DNA of 62,470 nucleotides, filler included, from Candidatus Huberarchaeum crystalense (GTDB lineage Archaea; Huberarchaeota; Huberarchaeia; Huberarchaeales; Huberarchaeaceae): assembly GCA_002790315.1 (NCBI GenBank). It is 9 parts of 9 records of this genome, joined end to end, with 100 filler letters (N's around TTAATTAATTAA, not from the genome) between each part and the next. Parts side by side here need not be neighbours in the genome. Positions count along the whole stretch, not along the records: positions 50,630 to 58,101 come from PFUW01000026.1; 8 more parts are not named here. The stretch is one strand, 5' to 3'. Positions 34,364-58,233 of this stretch are shown here, one piece after another. The stretch's first letter is position 1; every line of letters begins with the position of its first letter. The position numbers and the translations under genes were made by a program. The notes below the pieces were generated by a model that saw only the letters and a list, made by a program, of their open reading frames with translations, was not told the origin of the DNA and did no database searches.

Positions 34364-34497
34364 GTTTATGGTTCTGTCTCAAAAGATTTAAAACAATATT
34401 ATGTAAATTAAATTTATAGTTGCAAATTATGTTAAACTCAATTTAATATGTTTGCTTTTCTTCGTGTTTATATTGTGTTTTGTGTAAAAATCATAAG

Positions 34498-34554
34498 CAC
34501 AAATGATGAAAGATAGGCGGTCTGAACTATGATGATAACTTACATTCTGATGTG
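34498..34554 (+). ncRNA. Box C/D guide sRNA 1
   Basis: CACA stem, C box ATGATGA 34503-09, 12-nt guide, D' CTGA 34522-25, C' ATGATGA 34529-35, 11-nt guide, D CTGA 34547-50, closing TGTG. Confidence 0.88.
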
Positions 34555-34872
34555 TTGTTATTAGGCGCTTTTTGATGTTTTGATAAAGTGCTTTGTTTTT
34601 TGTTAAAAAATTTTTGCAGAATTATTTTCATAGTTTTGAAGAATCGTGCTGTTAAAAATTTTTATAATGTTATTGTATATTCTTTTTTTATTATTATTTT
34701 TTAAGTTCAATAAAAAGCAACCACTTCAATGCTTTTAATGTTTTATGTTTTTAGACCTTTTAAGGTTTATATAACCAAGACTTTCTGAAAGTGTTTGTTA
34801 AAGAATTATTTTGTTTTTTAATTTTTTTGTGTTGTATTTCTTATTTTTATAATAGGTATTGAATCTAAATTT

Positions 34873-39129: not shown

Positions 39130-39452
39130 NNNNNNNNNNNNNNNNNNNNNNNNNNNNNNNNNNNNNNNNNNNNTTAATTAATTAANNNNNNNNNNNNNNN
39201 NNNNNNNNNNNNNNNNNNNNNNNNNNNNNTGCGTTCTCTATTGTATTATATGTATTATATCCTGTTTTGTATAACATTTTGTTTTTCCTTAGGGAAAGAT
39301 TTTTACTTTCCCATAAAATATTTAATATATTAAACATAGTTATTCAAAAAAGATAATAACTTAAAACCTCAAATCTTGTATAAATAATATATATGATGTC
39401 TTTTATCAGAGATGATAATTGACTGAGTTTAGATATACATTTATCAATGAAG

Positions 39453-42401
39453 CAAATACATCTATATATACACATATAACATTTTCTAAAAAATGTTTAT
39501 ATAATTTACACGAAGTGTAAAATGTGCATATAAAAGTTTGTAAAACAAACTTTTCTCGTTAATTTCTGCAAAGCTGTTTGTTGGATTGTTAGGTTTATGC
39601 AACGATGAAGGGCGTGGCAAGCTGCGATAAGCTGAGAGAAGGTGCAAGCAACCTATAATTCTCAGATTCCTGAATAAGCATACTTATACTCATTGAGTAT
39701 ATTTCGTAAGAAAAGTCAACGCACAGAATTGAAATATCTTAGTACGTGCAGGAAAAGAAATCAAAAGAGATGCTGTAAGTAAGTAGACTGAAATCAGCAC
39801 AGGGCAAACTGAATCTGAAAAGAGATGTGGTGAGACATAAGGAAAACACAAGAATAATAAACTTGTTTGGAACAACAGATGATACAGGGTGATAATCCCG
39901 TAATTATTTGCGTGTTTTTCTGTCTTAAAGAGTATATTTGGTTTGAATTCCAGATAGAATGGGGGTTATTAACCTCCAACCCTAAAAATTAGCATAAAAC
40001 CGATAGCAAAAAGGTAGCGTGAGCGAAAACTGAAAAGATCTCTTGGTAGAGGGTGAAAAGTACATGAAAGCAAGCAGTGATAGTAAGTCAAAGTATGAAA
40101 GAGAATGTAAAATTCTCAATATTTTGGCGTTCGTTCTGGATAACGAGGCAAGGACTTGGTCTTAGCGGCAAGCTGAAAAGCGTAGCGAAAGCAAGTGTGA
40201 AAGTGCGTTTAGTCGTTAGGGCCTGACCTGAAGCCGGGCGATCTATTCTTGAGTAAGATGAATGGGAGTATATAACTTCCTTGAGGTCTGAAGGTATTTC
40301 TAGGGAGATGCTATAACTTAAGAATAGGAGCAAAATACCAATCGAGCTCGGCGATATCTGGGTCCATCTGAAAGATCCCATAGGATCGTTTTATTGTAGA
40401 ATTATTTTTGTAGAGAAACTGATTGAGTCGCCTCGGAGAGAAATCTCTAGCACTCTGTCAAACTCCGAATAGAATAATTTGTTCAATAGAAAGGAGGCGT
40501 TCGGGATAAACTTGAACACCAAAAGTGGAACAAAACACCCTAAAGTTAAGGTCCCAAAATAGCATCTAAGTGAAAAAGATTTTATTTTTCTAAAACAGCG
40601 AGGATATAAGCTCAGAAGCAGCTATTATCTAAGGAGTGCGTAACAGCTCACTCGTCTAGAAAAATAAAATCGACAACGGGACTAAGGTGCTTACCGATAC
40701 TTTAGTTCTTTTGCTGTAAAGCAATTGAAGATAGGATGGCGTGGTGATGGGGGAGAAGTTGGGTCGTAAGATCCAATAGACCTGTCACTAGTGAAAATCT
40801 TGCCGATAGTAGCAGAAATTAGCGTGAGAATCGCTAAGGTCTTAAGGGATAGGATTTCTTCCCAATGATCATCAAGGAAGAGTTAGTCGGTCTTAAGAAA
40901 AGGCATAATTTGCCGTATCAAAAAGGAAATAGGTTAATATTCCTATACTTGTGCACTACACGCGGCAACGCAAGGTGTAGTTTTGACAAATTAGGCAACC
41001 CTTTTGCAAACGCATTTGATAATACTCTGGAGAGTTGCAATAACGAGAAGGAGTAAAAAATAATGTGGCCTCGCAAGAGGTATAGGGTGCGCCAAGTTTT
41101 CTTAAAAAGAAACTGCGCAAGAATGTGCATAAACCGTACCAAAACCTTTACAGGTTCCCTGGCTGAGAATGCTAAGACCGTCGTGTTAATTTTGCAGAAG
41201 GAAATAAGCAAAATAGTTCTGTATCTTAGGTATAAAGAATGCCCTTGCTTGCGAAAGTGAGGGTCTATGTAAAAAGATCTGCTGGACTGTTTAACAAAAA
41301 CACAGGTGGCTGCTAAGTAGTAATGCTTTGTATAGCCGCCGACGTCTGCCCAGTGGGAGTGTGTTAAAGCTGGTTTCAACCAGCCTAAGCCCTTCTAAAC
41401 GGCGGGATTATTTTTGAGTCTCTTAAGGTAGCGAAATCCATTGTTATTTGATTGATGACATGTCTGAAGACGTAACAAGGTAGATGCTGTCTTCTGCATA
41501 AACGCGGTGAACACACTTTTTCATGTGTAAAAGCTGAAGAATTTCGATGGGACGAGAAGACCCCATGGAGCTCTGCGGCAATCTGATGTTATAAATTGTT
41601 CTTAGGTGTTTAGAATAGGAAGAAAGCTTCGAAGCAATTTCGCTAGAAATTGTAGAGCTGACAGTGTAATACTTCCCACTTAAGAACAGTTTGTTTATCC
41701 AGAAATGGAAACAGCTTTAGATGGGCCGCTCGACTGGGGCGGGAAACTGTTAAAAAGATATCAACAGTGTCCAAAGGTCAGCTTAAGAGGTTTAGAAATC
41801 CTCTGAAAAGTACAAAGGCAAAAGCTGATTTGACAGGATTCTGCATAGTAAGGAATCCTGGGACGAAAGTCCGGCTTAGAGAACGGTATGTGTATATTAA
41901 TAATTGCATACCCTAACAGAAAAGCTACCCTGGGGATAATTAGGCTGTCTTGGGAGAGAGTACATATCGACCCCAAGGATTGCTGTTTCGCCTTCAACTC
42001 TGAGTTTCCTGGCAGTGCAGTAGCTGCCAAGGGTGCGGGTGCTAACCAATTAAAACTCATCGTTAGTCGGGTTCATAACGGCGCGAGCCAGTTAGGTTTC
42101 TATCTGTCGAGATTGTAGTTATCTGAGAGTAACGGAATCATAGTACGAAAGGAACAGATTCTGGACGCCAACTGTGTATTGGTCATCGAAAGGTGTTTTG
42201 CCAAGTAGCAGCGCGTTATATGAATAAGAACTGAAAGCATCTAAGTTCGAAGTCATCCTTAAAAATAGATAACTGAGATCCTTGTAAATGACGAGGTTAA
42301 TAGGACACGAGTGTAAATATTGTAAGATATTAAGCTAAGTGTTACTAAGTTCTCAAATAAATTAACGAGATTTACATATGCAGTATATATAGATGTATTT
42401 G
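39453..42401 (+). repeat. Long-range inverted repeats flanking 23S (processing stem)
   Basis: 39453-39471 pairs perfectly with 42383-42401 (19 bp); 39525-31 with 42376-82; 39554-65 with 42359-70. Confidence 0.85.
39560..42365 (+). rRNA. rrl: 23S rRNA, divergent, not linked to 16S or 5S
   Basis: GATGAAGGGCGTGGCAAGCTGCGATAAGC near the 5' end, GTPase centre AGAAGCAGC..GCGTAACAGCTCA, TAAGGTAGCGAAA, P-loop GACTGGGGCGG, GAGTACATATCGAC, CTGAAAGCATCTAAG. Ends approximate. Confidence 0.97.
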
Positions 42402-42626
42402 TGAAGATGAATTATTTTTACAGAATAAGTAGAGTTGACACTTTTCTTTAATTGCTATTATCTATTTTATCTAAATATGATTAAAGTTTTTTATTGCTTA
42501 CAATACTTATATTGTCATTGTTGTTNNNNNNNNNNNNNNNNNNNNNNNNNNNNNNNNNNNNNNNNNNNNTTAATTAATTAANNNNNNNNNNNNNNNNNNN
42601 NNNNNNNNNNNNNNNNNNNNNNNNNA

Positions 42627-50529: not shown

Positions 50530-50867
50530 NNNNNNNNNNNNNNNNNNNNNNNNNNNNNNNNNNNNNNNNNNNNTTAATTAATTAANNNNNNNNNNNNNNN
50601 NNNNNNNNNNNNNNNNNNNNNNNNNNNNNTTGCAAACTTTATAAATCTCCTGCCTTACAGGGGATTTAATACAGAAAAGTAAAAACTCTTCTATAATGTC
50701 TTTTAGCAAGGTAGTTTAAAAAGGGCGCGCAATTTAGAGATGCATTACGAAAACAGCATCATTTTTAGATAAATTATGCTAATATTTACATTTAAAAACA
50801 TCATATTTTGAATCCAAAACAAAAACATATCTTTGCATTTCTTTTTAAAAACTGCAAAAAACACAAA

Positions 50868-51407
50868 CTACTCTAATTTCTGTAAATTAAATGTTGCTTT
50901 AACTTCTTCATAAACTTTGCGGCCTTGCTCAATAAGTATTTTTTTATATTTTTCTTTAAGTGGGTTGAGCACGCAAACATTATAAACTCCTTGCTTCATT
51001 TCATAAACTCCTCTACCCATAGCGCGTCCAACAGCACTTATATCATCATCAATATATTCTTTTCTGTCAAATATAAATTTTCCCTTAATTTCAACTTCAA
51101 CATTACCTGTTTCTGTTGGCTGGCCTTGTGGTACTGGTTGTCTCTTTAAATTACCTTCTATTTTAACACCTATTTCATTTGCTATTTCTTTTATACAAAT
51201 ATCTTCTTCAGACAGTTTTTTTTTTGATTTTAATTCTATTTTAAACCAAAAATCAGTTGGGCTTCGCTGTTTGAAAGTGTATGTTTCGCTAATATCTCCA
51301 AAAGTGCTAAACAGTGATTTTACTTTTCCTGTTTTATATACCTTCATTGGATCATCGCCTTCATAAGTAATTATCTGCTTAAATACTTCTATTTCTTGCT
51401 TAGCCAT
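50868..51407 (-). CDS. Hypothetical protein
   Basis: 179-aa ORF starting 3 nt after the CBS gene stop. Confidence 0.7.
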   Translation of the reverse strand: MAKQEIEVFKQIITYEGDDPMKVYKTGKVKSLFSTFGDISETYTFKQRSPTDFWFKIELKSKKKLSEEDICIKEIANEIGVKIEGNLKRQPVPQGQPTETGNVEVEIKGKFIFDRKEYIDDDISAVGRAMGRGVYEMKQGVYNVCVLNPLKEKYKKILIEQGRKVYEEVKATFNLQKLE

Positions 51408-51410
51408 TTA

Positions 51411-51992
51411 TTAATTACCTCCATTTTCACCTTTCATAGCAACGCAATGTTCGCAAATCCATACTCCATCAACTAATTGTAAATTTTCTGAAAGATTATG
51501 ACACTCCTCACAATAACCTTCAATTGATTTATTTTTAATTCCTTTCTTTCTATCAAGTCCTCTTATTTTAATCATTTCGCGCTTTTTTATAATCTCTTCA
51601 GGTTTAGTGCGCAAAATATCACGGTATGTAATCAAGCCAACAATCACTTTATCTTTTTCAACAGGAAATCTTTTAACATTTTTTTTAAACATAAGATTTG
51701 TTGCTTCTGTTACGGTTGTATTTAAATTGACAGTGATTAAATCTTTAGTCATAATATCTCCTGCTTTTAGCACATAAATATTATGCCTTGGAATTGCTGA
51801 GATAATGTCGCTTTCAGTTATTATGCCTATAATATTTTTTTTTGTATCTTCAATTAACAAGGTTCCAACGCGATTTTTTTTCATAATTTTAATACAATCC
51901 ACAGCAGAAGTACTTACTGGTGCTGAAATCAATTTATATGACATTATATCTTCTACGCAAAGCTCATGGAAAAAGAAAGGCAGATTAACCAT
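51411..51992 (-). CDS. CBS-pair protein with C-terminal Zn ribbon
   Basis: VEDIMS, IGIITESDI, VGLITYRDI, CEEC...CEHC. Confidence 0.9.
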   Translation of the reverse strand: MVNLPFFFHELCVEDIMSYKLISAPVSTSAVDCIKIMKKNRVGTLLIEDTKKNIIGIITESDIISAIPRHNIYVLKAGDIMTKDLITVNLNTTVTEATNLMFKKNVKRFPVEKDKVIVGLITYRDILRTKPEEIIKKREMIKIRGLDRKKGIKNKSIEGYCEECHNLSENLQLVDGVWICEHCVAMKGENGGN

Positions 51993-52012
51993 AATATATT
52001 TGTAATAATTTG

Positions 52013-52148
52013 GTTGATGTGTGAATTGTAAAATTAGTGTAAACTAAAATTAGTTGGTGCGTAAATTGTAAAATTAGTTAGTTGATGTGTGAATTGTAAA
52101 ATTAGTGTAAACTAAAATTAGTTGGTGCGTAAATTGTAAAATTAGTTA
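52013..52148. repeat. 68-bp tandem duplication built of AAAATTAGT subrepeats
   Basis: Copies start at 52013 and 52081 and fill the region between divergent genes. Confidence 0.92.
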
Positions 52149-52187
52149 TGGTGTAAATTATGGTTGTTAGTAGCATCTAAAAATATT

Positions 52188-53012
52188 ATGTTGTTAGAGA
52201 TTCCTTATATTATAGCTTTGACATTTGCATTGCTTTTTGCATATTATGACTTAAAAAAAGGTGAAGTTGAAAATTGGGTGTCCTATTTACCCCTGGCTTT
52301 GGGTATTATGTATTGGTTTGTTGTGTTATGGCTATTCTACGAAAATTATTTATTTAATGCAATTGGAGGAGCAATATTACTTTATTTTGTTGGTCTTTTG
52401 CTTTATTATTTTGCGGGTCTTGGGGGTGCAGATGTGAGGTTTTTGGCTGGGCTGGCTGTGCTTCTTCCTGCAACACCACAAACAAACTTGTTATTTGCTG
52501 TTCCCCTTGTTTTGCTCTATAATTTCTTTATTTTATTGGTTTTTTTGGTTTTAGGACACATAGTTTATCATTTGCGCGACAACAACAAACAAATATTTGC
52601 AAATTTTAAGAGTTTTTGCCAAAAAAATTTTATTTTGGCAGGAGCAATGACTATTTATGCAGTTATTTACTTGTTTTTATTTATTTACTTTAACTTATTC
52701 GCATTTTTGCTCGGATTTATTCTTGTTTGCTCAACACTCATAGCAATGTCACAACAAGACCTATTTACAGCAAAAATTAATGTTAAAACAGCAAAATACG
52801 CTAATTTGAAAGGTAAAGAACTCAGCCAGGCTATTATAAAAAATGGAAAAATCATCGCGCCCGCATGGTCAAAAATAACCCCTTTTTTATTGAATTTATT
52901 AAAGCAAGAAAAGGTGAACTTTATTTTTATAAAAAGCTCGTCTTTGCCAGTAGGAATTATTTTTCCATTGCTTGTGATATTTACTTATTTTTTTGGGGCA
53001 ATTGGTTTCTAA
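52188..53012 (+). CDS. Prepilin/preflagellin peptidase (A24)
   Basis: YYDLKKGEVEN and LGGAD catalytic Asp motifs, multiple TM segments. Confidence 0.88.
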   Translation: MLLEIPYIIALTFALLFAYYDLKKGEVENWVSYLPLALGIMYWFVVLWLFYENYLFNAIGGAILLYFVGLLLYYFAGLGGADVRFLAGLAVLLPATPQTNLLFAVPLVLLYNFFILLVFLVLGHIVYHLRDNNKQIFANFKSFCQKNFILAGAMTIYAVIYLFLFIYFNLFAFLLGFILVCSTLIAMSQQDLFTAKINVKTAKYANLKGKELSQAIIKNGKIIAPAWSKITPFLLNLLKQEKVNFIFIKSSSLPVGIIFPLLVIFTYFFGAIGF

Positions 53013-53126
53013 AAAGAATATGGCTGTCTTACACTTTTCTCTAAATATTGGTTTCTAAAAAGAATATGGCTGTCTTACACTTTTCTCTAAATATTGGTTT
53101 CTAAAAAGAATATGGCTGTCTTACAC
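53001..53126. repeat. 46-bp tandem repeat, about 2.7 copies, starting in the peptidase 3' end
   Basis: ATTGGTTTCTAAAAAGAATATGGCTGTCTTACAC at 53001, 53047, 53093. Confidence 0.95.
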
Positions 53127-53219
53127 CTTCCTCCTAAAATCATTGCTATTATTATTTTTGTGATTATAGTTTTTAGTTTTTGCTTGTATGTACTTTTATC
53201 TCACTTTTTATAAAACAAT

Positions 53220-53450
53220 ATGGCTGATGAAAAAAATGATATTGTTCTGGTTCTTGTAGTGTTAGTAATTATAGTAATATTATTATTTATTCTTATTAAT
53301 TTCCTCAACAATACTGCGCCAGGATTTATAAAGTTTGTTTTGTATAGTATTAATGGTCTTTTTACAACCATAATAAATATGTTTGGCGCAGGTTTAGGAG
53401 TATTGAAGACAATTGTAGATATTATTACTTGGCCATTTAAACAATTTTAG
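53220..53450 (+). CDS. Small membrane protein, possibly pilin-like
   Basis: N-terminal hydrophobic helix; lies between the peptidase and the ATPase. No clear class III cleavage site. Confidence 0.55.
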   Translation: MADEKNDIVLVLVVLVIIVILLFILINFLNNTAPGFIKFVLYSINGLFTTIINMFGAGLGVLKTIVDIITWPFKQF

Positions 53451-53477
53451 ATAATTGCAAATATCTAAAAAAATTAA

Positions 53478-53548
53478 GCGCGCATAGTCTAGTGGTAAGA
53501 CATCACCTTGCCAAGGTGGGGACACGGGTTCGAGTCCCGTTGTGCGCA
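53478..53548 (+). tRNA. tRNA-Gly(GCC)
   Basis: GCGCGCA/TGTGCGC acceptor, CACC-TT-GCC-AA-GGTG, ACGGG-TTCGAGT-CCCGT. Confidence 0.95.
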
Positions 53549-53566
53549 TAAAAACATAAAATACTT

Positions 53567-55939
53567 ATGGAAGATGAAAAAGAAAAACAAAACACTCTTA
53601 AAAATAAAAATTTATCCCAGGGTTCTAAAAGTTCTATGTCTGATGTTGTAAAGTCCAGTATAGATTCGCTCCAAGTCCCGCAAACAGATATTTTGCAAAT
53701 ATTACCATATATTATCGAAAAAGACAAATCAGGTGCAATTCTAAAAATAAATTTTCACAATACTTTTCAATTTGCTTCAATTGAACATTCTGATTTTGCA
53801 ATGGAACAAGTGCTTCGCATTCTTGAATTAGTAGGCAGTGTTAGCAAGATTGTACTTTCAAAGCAAATGGAATTTGAATATCCTCCAGAGCAAACAGCAA
53901 TGCTAAATGATTTTATAGATGTAATTAATTATTTAAAAAAATCATATAATGTTCTCGATCTAATACCACAGTACCAAACCCAACCAGAATATCTTGTATT
54001 GTTTTTTCAATTTCGCCACATCCTTGAAAAAATCATATATTCACATCCCATAATTGCATACACACACATCAACAAGATGCGACGAGATATAATCTACAAA
54101 GTTCAATATACAAAAGATGAGTTTAAAGATATGCATTTAGCATTTATAGACAAACACTTAACACCTTCCCTAAATCTTTTAGAAAAAACGCAAATAATTA
54201 AAAAAATAAAAGATTCTTTGCCTGGTTATGTTGGTTCGCGGGACATCTATACTACTATTTTTCATCCGCTCATAAGGCCAAGCTTTATATACACAAATAT
54301 CCAACTTAAGCCTTCTGAAGATGCTATAGAAATAAATAGCTATTCAGTTGACAATGTTAAAGTGTCAATATATAAAATTAAAGATGATATCAATTATATT
54401 TATTCAATCGAGCCGCAAGAGTATTTTTTAAGCGACACAGAATATAATATTTTAAACGAAGCCCGCAGAATCATTAGCGAATATAAACCTTTTGAAAAAA
54501 GTAGCAATGTTCAATCTGAAATGAGAAATATATTTTCTAGCATAATTTTGAATGTGTTAATTGAGCTAAATAAAAAATATAATTCATCATTCTCTTACGA
54601 AAATTTGTTAAAATTAAGAGCTATTTTGGTGCGCGAAACAGTTGGTTTTGGGATTATAGAAGTAATTTCAAATGACCCTAAAATCCAAGACATATATATA
54701 AATGCTCCTGCTGGAACTAAGCCAATATATGTTAACCACTCAATATATGGCGAATGTAAAACAAATATAGTCCCAACTATTTATGATCTGACTGCATGGG
54801 TTACTAAACTAAAAATGTTGTCAAACCGCCCGCTTGATGAATCAGTCCCAACACTCGATACATATCTTAACTTTCCTCCAAATACAAGAGTAAGAATAGC
54901 TGTTACCCACCCTCCTTTAAATGCTTATGGTATAGGATTAACCATACGTCGCCATAGAAGTAATCCTTGGACTTTGCCTTTATTTATAAAAAATAAGATG
55001 ATTAATTCTTTAGGTGCTGCGATTATTTCTTTTTTTGTGGATTATTCATCAACTTTTTTAGTTGCAGGAACGCGTGGAAGCGGAAAAACATCTTTTTTAT
55101 CATCAATGATTTTTCAAGTGTTGAACAAACATCGATTTATTATTGTAGAAGATACACGCGAAATTGATGTTGACACTATGCGAAAAAATGGTTATAATGT
55201 TGAAAGTTTGCAAGCACAATCACCTATTATTCAAACAGGCACAGAGTTGCCGGTTTCATCTGCCATAAGAGTATCTTTAAGGTTGGGTGATTCTGCGTTG
55301 ATACTTGGAGAAGTCAGAAGTGAAGAAGCAATCACATTATATGAGGCAATGCGCGTAGGTGCTCTTGCAAATATTGTCGGCGGAACAATCCATGGAGATT
55401 CTCCTTATGGTGTTTTTGACAGGGTAGTAAATGACTTGCACGTGCCAATTACAAGTTTTAAAGCAACAGACATAATTGTGATTACTAGTATAATAAAATC
55501 ACCTGGCGGACTAAAAAAAGAACGGCGCGTAACACGAATTACAGAAGTGAGAAAACGATGGACAACAGACCCTGTAAAAGAAAACGCTTTTGTTGATTTG
55601 ATGGTGTATAACGCAGAAACCGACGAGCTTGAGCCAACAGATGCGCTGCAATCAGGAGATAGTGAAATTATAAAAAGAATTTCAAGCAATGTTGTTGTGT
55701 GGAAAAATGATTGGAATTTTGTTTGGGGGGACATTATGCTTAGAAAAGCGTGGTTTGATGAACTTGTAAAAATAGGCAACTTATCCCCTGAAATGTTAGA
55801 ATCTAATTTTTATGTAACTGCTAATAGCGCTTTTCACAATATTTATGAAAATAAAACAACAGCATTGGGCTATATTAATTATGATGAAATTTTTAGAGAT
55901 CTAATGCACTGGTTAGAGTTAAAAAAGGAAAAGACATAA
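53567..55939 (+). CDS. Type II/IV secretion (pilus assembly) ATPase, VirB11/TadA family
   Basis: DPKIQDIYIN, GTRGSGKT, VEDTRE, LRLG...GEVRSEEA, GTIHG, RRVTRITEV. Confidence 0.92.
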   Translation: MEDEKEKQNTLKNKNLSQGSKSSMSDVVKSSIDSLQVPQTDILQILPYIIEKDKSGAILKINFHNTFQFASIEHSDFAMEQVLRILELVGSVSKIVLSKQMEFEYPPEQTAMLNDFIDVINYLKKSYNVLDLIPQYQTQPEYLVLFFQFRHILEKIIYSHPIIAYTHINKMRRDIIYKVQYTKDEFKDMHLAFIDKHLTPSLNLLEKTQIIKKIKDSLPGYVGSRDIYTTIFHPLIRPSFIYTNIQLKPSEDAIEINSYSVDNVKVSIYKIKDDINYIYSIEPQEYFLSDTEYNILNEARRIISEYKPFEKSSNVQSEMRNIFSSIILNVLIELNKKYNSSFSYENLLKLRAILVRETVGFGIIEVISNDPKIQDIYINAPAGTKPIYVNHSIYGECKTNIVPTIYDLTAWVTKLKMLSNRPLDESVPTLDTYLNFPPNTRVRIAVTHPPLNAYGIGLTIRRHRSNPWTLPLFIKNKMINSLGAAIISFFVDYSSTFLVAGTRGSGKTSFLSSMIFQVLNKHRFIIVEDTREIDVDTMRKNGYNVESLQAQSPIIQTGTELPVSSAIRVSLRLGDSALILGEVRSEEAITLYEAMRVGALANIVGGTIHGDSPYGVFDRVVNDLHVPITSFKATDIIVITSIIKSPGGLKKERRVTRITEVRKRWTTDPVKENAFVDLMVYNAETDELEPTDALQSGDSEIIKRISSNVVVWKNDWNFVWGDIMLRKAWFDELVKIGNLSPEMLESNFYVTANSAFHNIYENKTTALGYINYDEIFRDLMHWLELKKEKT

Positions 55940-56078
55940 CACTAACACAAGTGTCGCAGTAGCTTCAGCAGACTAATATATATAAATCCTGTATCTCTTG
56001 GGTTGAGTGGNNNNNNNNNGAATTTGGCTCATTGCTCTTGTTATCTTATTTAAAGATGCTAACCTTCTATAAAAACAT

Positions 56079-56140
56079 TAAGCATATGATGAAATTAACA
56101 CCCGCTGACAAATGATGAGAAGGGTAGCTGCTGATGCTTA
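56079..56140 (+). ncRNA. Box C/D guide sRNA 2
   Basis: TAAGCA/TGCTTA stem, C ATGATGA 56086-92, guide AATTAACACCCG, D' CTGA 56105-08, C' ATGATGA 56112-18, guide GAAGGGTAGCTG, D CTGA 56131-34. Both guides match this window's 23S. Confidence 0.92.
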
Positions 56141-56151
56141 TATCAAAATTC

Positions 56152-56550
56152 TCAGATAGTATCCAAGATTTTGCCACGCTTCCAAGCAATTATTTTGGCT
56201 CCAATATATTTGGCGCGCGCCTGCAAATCTTTGTCATTTGTAACCAAAACAATCTCTTTGTTTTGGCGGCGTAAGTTTTTAATTAGGTCAATAATGTTAG
56301 AATCAATATCTTGATTAGAGTTAGTTTCAGTTATTTTTAATTTTCTAATTTTAATAAGATCTAAAGCAATTTTTGCCGCCTGTTTGTCTTTGCCTTTTTT
56401 GGTTTTTTTTGCAACTTTGATTAGTTCTTCACAGATAAAAGATGAAACAAGCAACTCATATTCGCCAAACAAACGATTCAATTCTCTAAAAATATCAACT
56501 TTCTGACGAACTCCTGCAATCCACGCATTTGTATCTATTATAATTAACAT
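56152..56550 (-). CDS. PIN-domain protein (Fcf1/Utp24-like)
   Basis: IIIDTNAW, VDIFREL, EEL, DIDSNI, VTNDKDL. Confidence 0.88.
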   Translation of the reverse strand: MLIIIDTNAWIAGVRQKVDIFRELNRLFGEYELLVSSFICEELIKVAKKTKKGKDKQAAKIALDLIKIRKLKITETNSNQDIDSNIIDLIKNLRRQNKEIVLVTNDKDLQARAKYIGAKIIAWKRGKILDTI

Positions 56551-56671
56551 ATTTTTTTTATTTGATCTACTACCACGACCAACCAACACAACCAAGCCAA
56601 ATTATTTATAAGTTTTTCAGAGGATTTTTATAGAACTTACTGACTAACTAACTTAATTAATTAACTTATTA

Positions 56672-56772
56672 TTAAGATGATTTTTGTATTTTTAAACAAA
56701 TTTTAGGTAAAATAAATCTTTGTATTTTTAAGATGATTTTTGTATTTTTAAACAAATTTTAGGTAAAATAAA
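56672..56772. repeat. Tandem duplication, period about 56 bp
   Basis: TTAAGATGATTTTTGTATTTTTAAACAAATTTTAGGTAAAATAAA at 56672 and 56728. Confidence 0.9.
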
Positions 56773-56856
56773 CTCTTATTTTTCAAAAAACAAACAATAA
56801 CATCTATATTTAAATAAACTGTTCCTTCCTTTTTAAACATCTCTCAAAACAATATT

Positions 56857-57156
56857 ATGGGGATGGAAACAATTTATGCAGCATTGCTTTTGCACGAGGT
56901 CAAACAACCAGCAAATGAAGAAAATCTGAAAAAAGTTCTTCAAGCAACTGGCGCGCAAGTAGACAACGCAATTGTAAAAGCAACAGTCGCAAGCTTAGAA
57001 AATGTGAATATTGAAGAGGCAATCGCAAACGCGAGTGTCGTAGCAGCTCCGGCAGTAGCAGCAAGTGCATCTCCTGCATCTTCTGAAAAAAAGAAAGAAG
57101 AAAAAAAAGAAGTTGGTGATGAAGCAGCAGCTGGTTTGAGCGCGCTCTTTGGATAA
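56857..57156 (+). CDS. rpl12p: Ribosomal stalk protein P1 (L12p)
   Basis: IYAALLLH...Ala-rich hinge...[10 protein letters not shown]. Confidence 0.96.
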
Positions 57157-57314
57157 ATTTAATGTAAAGTTGTGCAGTATTCAAATAAATTAATATTGTT
57201 GTGTGCTATTTAAATAAATTTAATGTAAAGTTGTGCAGTATTCAAATANNNNNNNNCAGAACAATATAAGAAAGCACAACAAAAGACAATCAAATAATAT
57301 AATGCTTAAACCAG

Positions 57315-57530
57315 CTAAGCTTCGGTCCTTGTCTCAACCAAGCGAACAAGCATGCCTTTTTCCACAGGTCCTGACACATTTCTATTTATAATTTTATCTT
57401 TATCTCGCCCACTCAAAATTTTTACTTTAACAAATGTTACATTCTTTCCACTGCCCGCGCCCTTATCTCCAACTTCAATAATCTCACCTAACGAAGGAAA
57501 TTCTTGTTGTTGGGGGTTTGGTGCAGCCAT
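57315..57530 (-). CDS. rps28e: Ribosomal protein eS28
   Basis: VKVKILSGRDKDKIINRNVSGPVEKG..L.ET..EA; follows L7Ae. Confidence 0.92.
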   Translation of the reverse strand: MAAPNPQQQEFPSLGEIIEVGDKGAGSGKNVTFVKVKILSGRDKDKIINRNVSGPVEKGMLVRLVETRTEA

Positions 57531-57531
57531 T

Positions 57532-57930
57532 TTATTGAGTTTGTTCTTGCTGTGGTTTTGATGTCTCTGCACTAAGAGTTGTTATTTTTTGTGTAAATTT
57601 TTTAAGTTCGTCTTCTAATTTTCCAGCTTCAACAACTGCTATTGACGCAGAACCTACACTTATACCTGCTGCAATTCCAAGATTTTTTTTAGTGTTTATA
57701 AATATATATGGAACCTTTTTTTCATTACACAAAGGAGGCAAGACAGCCACAATTTCTTCAGGAGAGACATCCATCGCTATATAAACAATTTTTGCTTGGC
57801 TACGCTCAATCGCTTTTATAACCTCATTAGTGCCTTTTTTTATATTTCCTGTTTTCGCTATTTGTTGAAGAAGATTTAGTGCTTCTTTTTGCGTGTCCTC
57901 AGGAACTTCAAAGGTTTGATAGTTTAACAT
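57532..57930 (-). CDS. rpl7ae: L7Ae (eL8), K-turn binding protein
   Basis: IKKGTNEVIKAIER, DVSPEEIVAVLPPLCNEKKVPY, LGIAAG. Confidence 0.96.
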   Translation of the reverse strand: MLNYQTFEVPEDTQKEALNLLQQIAKTGNIKKGTNEVIKAIERSQAKIVYIAMDVSPEEIVAVLPPLCNEKKVPYIFINTKKNLGIAAGISVGSASIAVVEAGKLEDELKKFTQKITTLSAETSKPQQEQTQ

Positions 57931-58233
57931 AATATATTGTGTAAATTTTCACATAAAATATTTTAAGTATTTTTCTTTGATTAGATGCGCGGTTGTGTAT
58001 AGCGTATTTATACAATATATGTTAAATAGGCGCGGCAAAAAAAGACAAAAAATCACAAGAAGTTTCTGCACAACAAGTATTTAAAAATAAGGCGCGCGCC
58101 CNNNNNNNNNNNNNNNNNNNNNNNNNNNNNNNNNNNNNNNNNNNNTTAATTAATTAANNNNNNNNNNNNNNNNNNNNNNNNNNNNNNNNNNNNNNNNNNN
58201 NTGTAAGCAATAAAAAACTTAATCCTACTCAAA

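Follow-up and report, generated by a model that had tools for sequence, protein, structure and literature searches.

Does a short RNA gene of Candidatus Huberarchaeum crystalense direct methylation of the 23S rRNA A-loop, when one base of its guide faces a mismatch in that loop? An earlier note on this DNA had proposed a C/D sRNA aimed at U2438 and U2552 of the 23S rRNA (E. coli numbering), and this proposal is favoured by the anatomy of the RNA, by the presence of core protein genes and by homologous guides in other archaea. The window, that is, the whole stretch of 62,470 nucleotides analysed here, consists of concatenated contigs of one metagenome-assembled genome (453 kb in 42 contigs, about 31% G+C, 78% complete), the sole member of its phylum in the genome collection searched. 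Contig C34 (window 50630-58101) carries the sRNA, the 3.3-kb contig C31 (39230-42525) the 23S rRNA and contig C20 the 16S rRNA; the sRNA contig is present in 23 groundwater or aquifer DNA runs and in no RNA run among the matches listed.

A double-guide box C/D sRNA gene

Direct reading of the plus strand reveals an archaeal double-guide box C/D sRNA of about 60 nt at 56080-56139, in the order AAGCA-T-ATGATGA-AATTAACACCCG-CTGA-CAA-ATGATGA-GAAGGGTAGCTG-CTGA-TGCTT. Its parts are as follows.

56047-56056 (+): TATA-like, A/T-rich TTATTTAAAG, putative archaeal promoter, about 25-33 nt upstream of the RNA 5' end
56080-56139 (+): whole box C/D sRNA, recognised by direct reading, by its unique pattern and by sub-threshold Rfam matches
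56080-56084 (+): terminal stem, 5' half AAGCA, reverse complement of 56135-56139
56086-56092 (+): box C, ATGATGA, an exact match to the RUGAUGA consensus (as given in PMC4644070)
56093-56104 (+): D' guide AATTAACACCCG, 12 nt, with position +5 at A56100
56105-56108 (+): box D', CTGA, exact consensus
56109-56111 (+): loop CAA, 3 nt, between box D' and box C'
56112-56118 (+): box C', ATGATGA, exact consensus
56119-56130 (+): D guide GAAGGGTAGCTG, 12 nt, with position +5 at A56126
56131-56134 (+): box D, CTGA, exact consensus
56135-56139 (+): terminal stem, 3' half TGCTT, pairing with 56080-56084 to form a stem of 5 bp

The C/D and C'/D' boxes, terminal stem, short loop, spacers and length all fit archaeal C/D sRNAs, which are about 60 nt long with 12-nt spacers (PMC7229835). 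The box and spacer pattern matches once in the window and in none of 100 dinucleotide shuffles, and its strict form occurs only twice in the whole 453-kb assembly. The RNA motif is far beyond chance; the guide matches, taken by themselves, are not. The suggestion that an unannotated C/D sRNA resides at this locus is borne out by the perfect boxes, the 12-nt guides and the shuffles, and we regard 56080-56139 as almost certainly a functional C/D sRNA gene.

No Rfam family reaches its gathering score on the sRNA in our Rfam search. Sub-threshold matches span 56082-56137 and belong to snoPyro_CD (RF00095, 32 bits, E-value 1.9e-5) and sR1 (RF01152, 26.8 bits). Boxes and spacing agree end to end with both models; however, both are lineage-specific families based on guides of Pyrococcus and Sulfolobus and, since both scores fall below the gathering score of 45, we did not place the sRNA in either of them.

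The gene is intergenic, between an upstream T2SSE-type ATPase gene ending at 55939 and a convergent PIN-domain gene ending at 56152 downstream. The A/T-rich TTATTTAAAG sits at the place expected for an archaeal TATA box and may act as promoter; a similar ...ATAAAGATG is found at a comparable distance upstream of two homologues, L065 and L067, among those described below. On the minus strand, a 40-aa open reading frame (56067-56189) overlaps the RNA; we rejected this unsupported reading as a mechanical ORF.

The D guide and U2438

The D guide has its best site, among the 16S rRNA, the 23S rRNA and 39 tRNAs, in domain V of the 23S rRNA:

41922-41933 (+): predicted D target, 23S domain V; predicted methylated nucleotide 41926 (U2438)

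Positions 2-10 of the guide form nine contiguous Watson-Crick pairs with 41923-41931 (duplex energy -16.9 kcal/mol), reproducing the 9 of 9 pairing and the +5 nucleotide, 41926, of the earlier note. Published assignments called for at least nine consecutive pairs to rRNA or tRNA including position +5 (PMC4644070), and such a run is present here. When the D guide was shuffled and compared with 16S and 23S rRNA, 9 of 10 pairs were attained by 155 of 3000 guides and nine contiguous pairs by 40 of 3000, so that complementarity alone supports the predicted D target moderately.

In the Rfam archaeal LSU alignment, 41926 falls within AAAAGcUACCC, directly before GGGGAUAAC, and 42040 is the first nucleotide of the helix-92 loop. 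We obtained the number U2438 by counting in the E. coli sequence of the 23S alignment that accompanies PMC4644070 (supplement 2), taking U2552 as the first A-loop nucleotide, as that paper has it. The numbering U2438 and U2552 proposed earlier agrees with both the Rfam alignment and this count. Methylation of U2438 by the D guide is predicted with good confidence.

The D' guide, the A-loop and two competing sites

The assignment of the D' guide is less straightforward. Its predicted target is the following:

42036-42047 (+): predicted D' target, 23S A-loop (helix 92); predicted methylated nucleotide 42040 (U2552), mismatch at 42042 (C2554)

Guide and A-loop form nine Watson-Crick pairs, at guide positions 1-6 and 8-10, with an A.C mismatch at position 7, two nucleotides away from the target, where A56098 faces C2554 (42042), and a duplex energy of -10.3 kcal/mol. 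The pairing of 9 of 10 with 42036-42045, placing 42040 at +5, was thus found again as first described. Counted within positions 2-11, the 10 nt able to pair in the RNP according to PMC7229835, it amounts to 8 of 10. The earlier note had called four bases of this A-loop odd: this holds for C2554 and A2556, which are special to this rRNA, whereas G2551 and A2557 are common to the other DPANN 23S sequences examined and to Nanoarchaeum equitans.

Two other 23S sites tie with the A-loop by number of pairs. One, 39886-39897, forms nine pairs at positions 2-6 and 8-11 (-10.5 kcal/mol); the other, 41180-41191, forms nine contiguous pairs at positions 4-12 (-8.1 kcal/mol). The latter had been described as a weaker alternative, which by pair count it is not, and 39886-39897 had to be added as a further tie. 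At the A-loop, this guide qualifies only under the relaxed double-guide criterion, with its one mismatch; at 41180-41191, it has the nine consecutive pairs of the stricter rule. Among 3000 shuffled D' guides compared with 16S and 23S rRNA, 671 (22%) attain 9 of 10 pairs and 228 attain nine contiguous pairs. The D' target cannot, then, be decided by complementarity alone, and we chose the A-loop because of homology.

The predicted D' and D targets are 114 nt apart in domain V. Closely spaced targets are usual for double guides, and one mismatch is allowed for double guides with nearby targets (PMC4644070).

Homologous guides in DPANN and other archaea

We scanned species-representative genomes with a pattern fixing box D', box C', the D-guide core GGGTANCT-N and box D, while the D' guide was left free; the D-guide pattern having been derived from this sRNA, a match of the D guide is not independent evidence. 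The scan returned 26 loci, 24 of which are archaeal C/D sRNAs. The two bacterial loci (L049 and L059) have no box C, as chance predicts, and we treat them as chance hits. Record titles of the 24 archaeal loci name Altiarchaeota/Altiarchaeales, Micrarchaeota, Nanoarchaeia/Nanoarchaeota, Parvarchaeota, Woesearchaeota, Undinarchaeota, Archaeoglobaceae and 'uncultured archaeon'. In all 24, the D guide ...GGGTAGCT-N directly before box D has the same core and register as here, where U2438 falls at +5. The D' guides vary: 14 are of a (A/G)CCG(T/A)CCCA type, five are of other kinds and five are of the A-loop type.

The five loci with A-loop-type D' guides (L040, L042, L055, L057 and L058) have the same architecture and the same guide pair as the RNA studied here and are likely orthologues; their record titles name Nanoarchaeia, Parvarchaeota, Nanoarchaeota and Woesearchaeota. 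Their D' guides have the form NNTGAAYNCCNN, resembling AATTAACACCCG, and read AGTGAATACCCA, TGTGAATCCCGG, AGTGAACACCTT (twice) and AGGTGAACACCCT. In each of the five genomes, the D guide pairs with AAGCTACCCT and has U2438 at +5. A 23S rRNA could be located in four of the five genomes and, in each of the four, the D' guide pairs with the A-loop of its own genome in the register seen here, so that nucleotide 2552 lies at +5; the pairs number 10, 10, 12 and 11, against nine here. Compensatory changes accompany these pairings: genome G062 has G2552 and a guide C at +5, and genome G063 has A2549 and U2559 with guide U and A facing them. At guide position 9, the RNA here has U opposite A2556, where the four relatives have G opposite C2556. 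This position-9 U and the unmatched position 7 set the present RNA apart from the five DPANN loci, whose guides match canonical or G2552 A-loops.

A scan of metagenomes for the two-guide architecture gave four loci. Two are identical to the present RNA, flanks included, and stem from the same organism; the other two represent another DPANN type, ...GAATCCCGC, with C at +5; no closer relative with a variant guide was found among the four. When the 81-nt region was compared by a BLAST-type method with 60 further archaeal genomes, related at the level of the domain only, nothing but short matches with E-values of at least 0.006 emerged; one of these, L005, was rejected as a homologue, being a different sRNA with a D' guide AATTATCCCCGC like that of N. 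equitans sR03.

On sequence grounds, the sRNA is a member of a DPANN family carrying both predicted guides, D' for U2552 and D for U2438, on one RNA. Homologous D' guides that pair with their own A-loops in the same register favour the A-loop as D' target, and methylation of U2552 by the D' guide appears probable to us, somewhat less firmly than that of U2438.

Has the D' guide, however, left the A-loop in this particular organism? The D guide could methylate U2438 while the D' guide acted at 41184 or 39890 instead, served as a chaperone or decayed into an 'empty' guide. The two competing sites equal or better the A-loop by pair count, and where the guide departs from its relatives, at positions 9, 11 and 12, every change suits 41180-41191; among them, the A at position 11 has lost the relatives' pair with C2558 and improves the match to that site. 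Such a fate would have precedents, as PMC4644070 describes about one third of published archaeal sRNAs as lacking an rRNA match for some guide and mentions mismatched guides reported to bind without methylating. Against this, the guide is still recognisably the A-loop guide of its family, identical to the D' guide of L058 at 8 of 12 positions in the same register, and all six GC-rich pairs around the target nucleotide have been preserved. The A-loop duplex is also more stable than that at 41180-41191 (-10.3 versus -8.1 kcal/mol), and at the latter site positions 1-3, next to box D', are unpaired, which would leave the target nucleotide one pair from the end of the duplex. Published criteria, moreover, permit one mismatch for double guides with nearby targets (PMC4644070). 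We consider a loss of the A-loop as target unlikely, though this is the most serious of the alternatives, and retain U2552 as the predicted D' target.

Is the mismatch at 2554 genuine?

Another concern is that the A.C mismatch does not exist in the cell, either because the 23S contig comes from another strain or organism or because the rRNA is edited from C to U at 2554. The 23S rRNA and the sRNA stand on different contigs of a binned metagenome genome, the former on one of 3.3 kb, and rRNA contigs are often mis-binned in metagenome assemblies. Across sequencing runs, the 23S region 39295-42458 recurs with zero differences in single contigs of four runs from four studies (2014-2017), all holding the sRNA contig, for which they were picked. 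Contigs can hide rare variants, and the Logan contigs used drop them, so that this identity speaks for the consensus level, at which the C at 42042 is stable; strain variation, one of the explanations first offered for the mismatch, is not seen at contig level.

Contig C31 also ends in sequences 100% identical to the start of contig C14 (47 nt) and the end of contig C38 (90 nt), and its flanks are as A/T-rich as the genome. Finally, guide position 9 fits the rare A2556 of the very same 23S rRNA. Reproduction of the contigs, shared ends, A/T-rich flanks and compensation at position 9 together argue that the 23S rRNA and the sRNA belong together. As to editing, C-to-U editing of rRNA is not known to occur in archaea. 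An unreal mismatch is, in our view, very improbable.

Least credible of all is that the element is a chance motif or a dead, unexpressed gene, given four perfect boxes in an intergenic gap behind a TATA-like element, a pattern that none of 100 shuffles reproduces, two more metagenome records that contain the same RNA with unchanged flanks, and an architecture kept in 24 archaeal genomes.

Core proteins and the FtsJ family

The genes expected for a C/D RNP are present. The earlier note had pointed to fibrillarin and Nop5 as proteins whose genes should be sought, and both were found, as was L7Ae, in the vicinity of the sRNA:

57532-57930 (-): L7Ae gene, K-turn-binding core protein of the C/D RNP (Pfam PF01248, E-value 3.1e-24), 1.4 kb from the sRNA

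Fibrillarin is encoded on contig C19 (213 aa, 227 bits) and a Nop-domain protein, Nop5, on contig C14 (243 aa, 132 bits). The Nop5 open reading frame aligns solely to residues 117-354 of the 388-aa Sulfolobus solfataricus protein, hence the N-terminal, fibrillarin-binding domain is absent from it. Searched with PF08156, which describes this Nop5 N-terminal domain, the genome scored below the cut-off, as did the control genomes. Short Nop5 open frames of 223-251 aa also occur in three of five other DPANN genomes checked, so that the short Nop5 is not peculiar to this organism.

The A-loop uridine 2552 is methylated almost universally. In bacteria, Um2552 is made by RlmE/FtsJ, a stand-alone, protein-only methyltransferase, and the equivalent Um2921 of yeast involves snR52 and Spb1. 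The product predicted here is the same, a 2'-O-methyl group on the first A-loop nucleotide. The system differs from RlmE, a protein-only enzyme, and the search for rlmE that had been proposed revealed no FtsJ/RlmE-family gene in the 78%-complete assembly. The same search in five relatives gave weak, partial matches, the best scoring 53.8 bits over profile positions 2-100.

Relation to known guide RNAs

RNA-guided formation of Um2552 in archaea has been published before: for five of the seven archaeal species studied by Dennis et al. (2015, PMC4644070), an sRNA is predicted to guide methylation of the first A-loop nucleotide (E. coli U2552), and the review PMC7994747 treats A-loop methylation as conserved. 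Both guides have RNA-seq-supported counterparts in N. equitans, on the separate RNAs sR10 and sR14 (Randau 2012; PMC4644070).

The D' guide of sR10, AGTGAACACCCT, targets alignment position U2826, which is E. coli U2552 (PMC4644070); it shares 8 of 12 guide positions with the D' guide here, in the same register and the same D' slot. As given in that source, sR10 differs in its D guide, which targets alignment position U2880 (E. coli C2606) instead of U2438, and the N. equitans A-loop has the canonical sequence UGUUC, to which the guide pairs with no mismatch inside the duplex.

In sR14, on the other hand, it is the D guide, AAGGAGTAGCTG (supplement 1 of PMC4644070), that is the same guide as GAAGGGTAGCTG. 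By our reading of the published sequences, its positions 2-10 pair with AGCUACUCC of the N. equitans 23S rRNA (AAGCUACUCC), placing the same U at +5, and a G-to-A change at guide position 8 matches C2441U in the N. equitans rRNA. Unlike the RNA here, sR14 has, in that supplement, CAGA as box D and a D' guide, GAAAGCACAAT, that bears no relation to the A-loop.

Proposed mechanism

The guide mechanism of C/D RNPs is established in the literature (PMC7229835, PMC4644070). Taken as a whole, a double-guide C/D sRNA with proposed methylation of U2438 and U2552 is the best explanation of the locus and a reasonably likely one. The sequence data show the motif, the complementarity, the homologues with their covariation and the protein genes, from which we infer transcription, RNP assembly and both methylations. 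The RNA would be transcribed from its own A/T-rich promoter, and its C/D K-turn and C'/D' K-loop would be bound by L7Ae. A Nop5 dimer would then bridge the two motifs and bring in two fibrillarins, one for each guide-target duplex of up to 10 bp. Each 12-nt guide would pair with about 9-10 nt of nascent 23S rRNA, and fibrillarin would methylate the ribose of the nucleotide opposite the fifth guide position, counted upstream from box D or D'. Um2438 (window 41926) would thereby come from the D guide and Um2552 (window 42040) from the D' guide. In this organism, the D' guide would have followed its divergent A-loop in part: C2556A is matched by a G-to-U change in the guide, and U2554C is left unmatched.

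A second sRNA and the wider meaning

A second C/D sRNA, at 34495-34558, pairs 10 of 10 with ACCGCCTATC of the 16S rRNA, in the decoding centre; the C at its +5 position is what we take to be C1402. The guide of this second sRNA also tracks the divergent sequence of this organism. No convincing third sRNA emerged from a relaxed whole-sRNA pattern (five hits, three of which had badly matching boxes and no guide match longer than 7 nt) or from a half-mer scan (89 hits, nearly all coding or antisense to tRNA genes).

Could the partial fit of the D' guide capture a guide in the course of following its target? A far-reaching reading, which we hold to be doubtful, would be that the A-loop UGCUA, against the near-universal UGUUC, and its weakened helix 92 are being followed half-way by the guide, within a minimal methylome. 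If true, one of two rRNA changes has its counterpart in the guide and the other has none, a third change, in the guide, favours 41180-41191, and the locus would offer a natural example of guide and target co-evolving, or of a guide being retargeted, at the ribose methylation that is most conserved in the ribosome. The two C/D sRNAs (16S C1402; 23S U2552/U2438) would then constitute a minimal archaeal RNA-guided methylome in place of the bacterial enzymes RsmI and RlmE.

The locus reveals no new mechanism; its interest lies in the partial tracking of a divergent A-loop and in the very small complement of sRNAs. With it, a very small archaeal genome (about 0.45-0.6 Mb) gains a previously unannotated RNA gene, and the comparison indicates that the two guide halves are combined differently among DPANN lineages. 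That the guides track changes in the A-loop, including U2552G, supports the +5 rule in uncultured archaea. In both the peptidyl-transferase region and the decoding centre, predicted RNA-guided methylation appears to have been kept with only two detectable C/D sRNAs, which agrees with the view that a few ribose methylations are indispensable.

A second C/D sRNA in the genome

The genome also carries a second canonical box C/D sRNA, on contig C30:

Window 34495-34558 (C30:12545-12608), + strand: ATGATGA-AAGATAGGCGGT-CTGA-ACT-ATGATGA-TAACTTACATT-CTGA

Its D' guide forms 10 of 10 pairs with the host 16S sequence ACCGCCTATC (16S positions 1331-1340), thereby placing the +5 position on a C that we take to be the equivalent of E. 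coli C1402. The matched 16S is itself divergent, reading CCUAUC for the consensus CCCGUC, and the guide follows these changes. A scan of the genome's 16S, 23S and 39 tRNAs revealed no clear target for the 11-nucleotide D guide.

Upstream of the sRNA at 56080-56139, which is predicted to guide methylation of 23S U2552 and U2438, an Rfam search of the 140-nucleotide gap separating it from the ATPase gene returned no match. A masked run of nine Ns (window 56011-56019) lies 60 nucleotides upstream of this sRNA.

Host Nop5 and the 23S contig

Fibrillarin and nop5 are encoded on separate contigs:

L002:1348-2079 (contig C14 of the host assembly): nop5, 243 amino acids

The host protein aligns to residues 117-354 of the 388-residue Nop5 of S. 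solfataricus; this ORF thus lacks the N-terminal domain that binds fibrillarin. Similarly short Nop5 frames (223-251 amino acids) occur in three other DPANN genomes (G061, G063 and G064).

The ends of the 23S contig, C31 (window 39278-39324 and 42429-42518), exactly repeat the start of C14 (47 nucleotides) and the end of C38 (90 nucleotides), and it is at these repeats that the contigs end; in four runs, unitigs flanking the 23S had about twice the depth of its body. A C/D-like string lies about 130 nucleotides upstream of the mature 23S 5' end:

Window 39393-39426, 23S 5' leader: ATGATGT-CTTTTAT-CAGA-GATGATA-ATTGA-CTGA

Its spacers are too short for a guide RNA; it may be a K-turn or pre-rRNA processing element, or a chance occurrence.

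A divergent peptidyl-transferase region

In domain V of the host 23S (window 41900-42200), normally conserved peptidyl-transferase positions differ from the Rfam archaeal consensus, and helix 92 retains only two to three standard pairs.

Domain V changes, consensus to host (E. coli numbering by our own count)
2452-2454: GAUAACaG to GAUAAUUA
2503-2505 and 2508-2509: UCGAUGUCgG to UCGCCUUCAA
A-loop: UGUUC to UGCUA
Window 41900-42200: GGGUUUAG to GGGUUCAU

This divergence may be a wider DPANN trait, since another DPANN 23S (L063) also diverges at 2447-2454 and 2501-2506. In a further 23S, L062 (G065:C22, with a Woesearchaeota record title), the U2438 region lies at about locus position 692 and the A-loop at about 1324, a spacing of about 630 nucleotides versus 114 in the host. 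This spacing, with a departure in sequence immediately 3' of GGGGGUAAG, suggests that the peptidyl-transferase ring is interrupted by an insertion or intron of about 500 nucleotides.

Guide halves across lineages

Among 24 archaeal C/D sRNA loci sharing the U2438 D guide (L034-L058), the partner D' guides vary between lineages, a pattern that shows modular reshuffling of guide halves. In 14 of them, mostly with Altiarchaeota and Micrarchaeota titles, the D' guide is of an (A/G)CCG(T/A)CCCA type, which probably targets helix 91 near 2520-2530. The N. equitans sR04 D' guide listed in supplement 1 of PMC4644070, GGCTGTCCCAGG, resembles this type.

Some DPANN have G rather than U at A-loop position 2552 (ACGGGGGTTCACC, in L061, the 23S of G062). 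The D' guides of L042 (from the same scan) and of two metagenome loci of another DPANN type, L065 and L067, carry C at +5 (..GAATCCCGG/..GAATCCCGC). Given this G and its complementary C, the predicted modification in DPANN with G2552 would be Gm2552, in place of the 'universal' Um2552.
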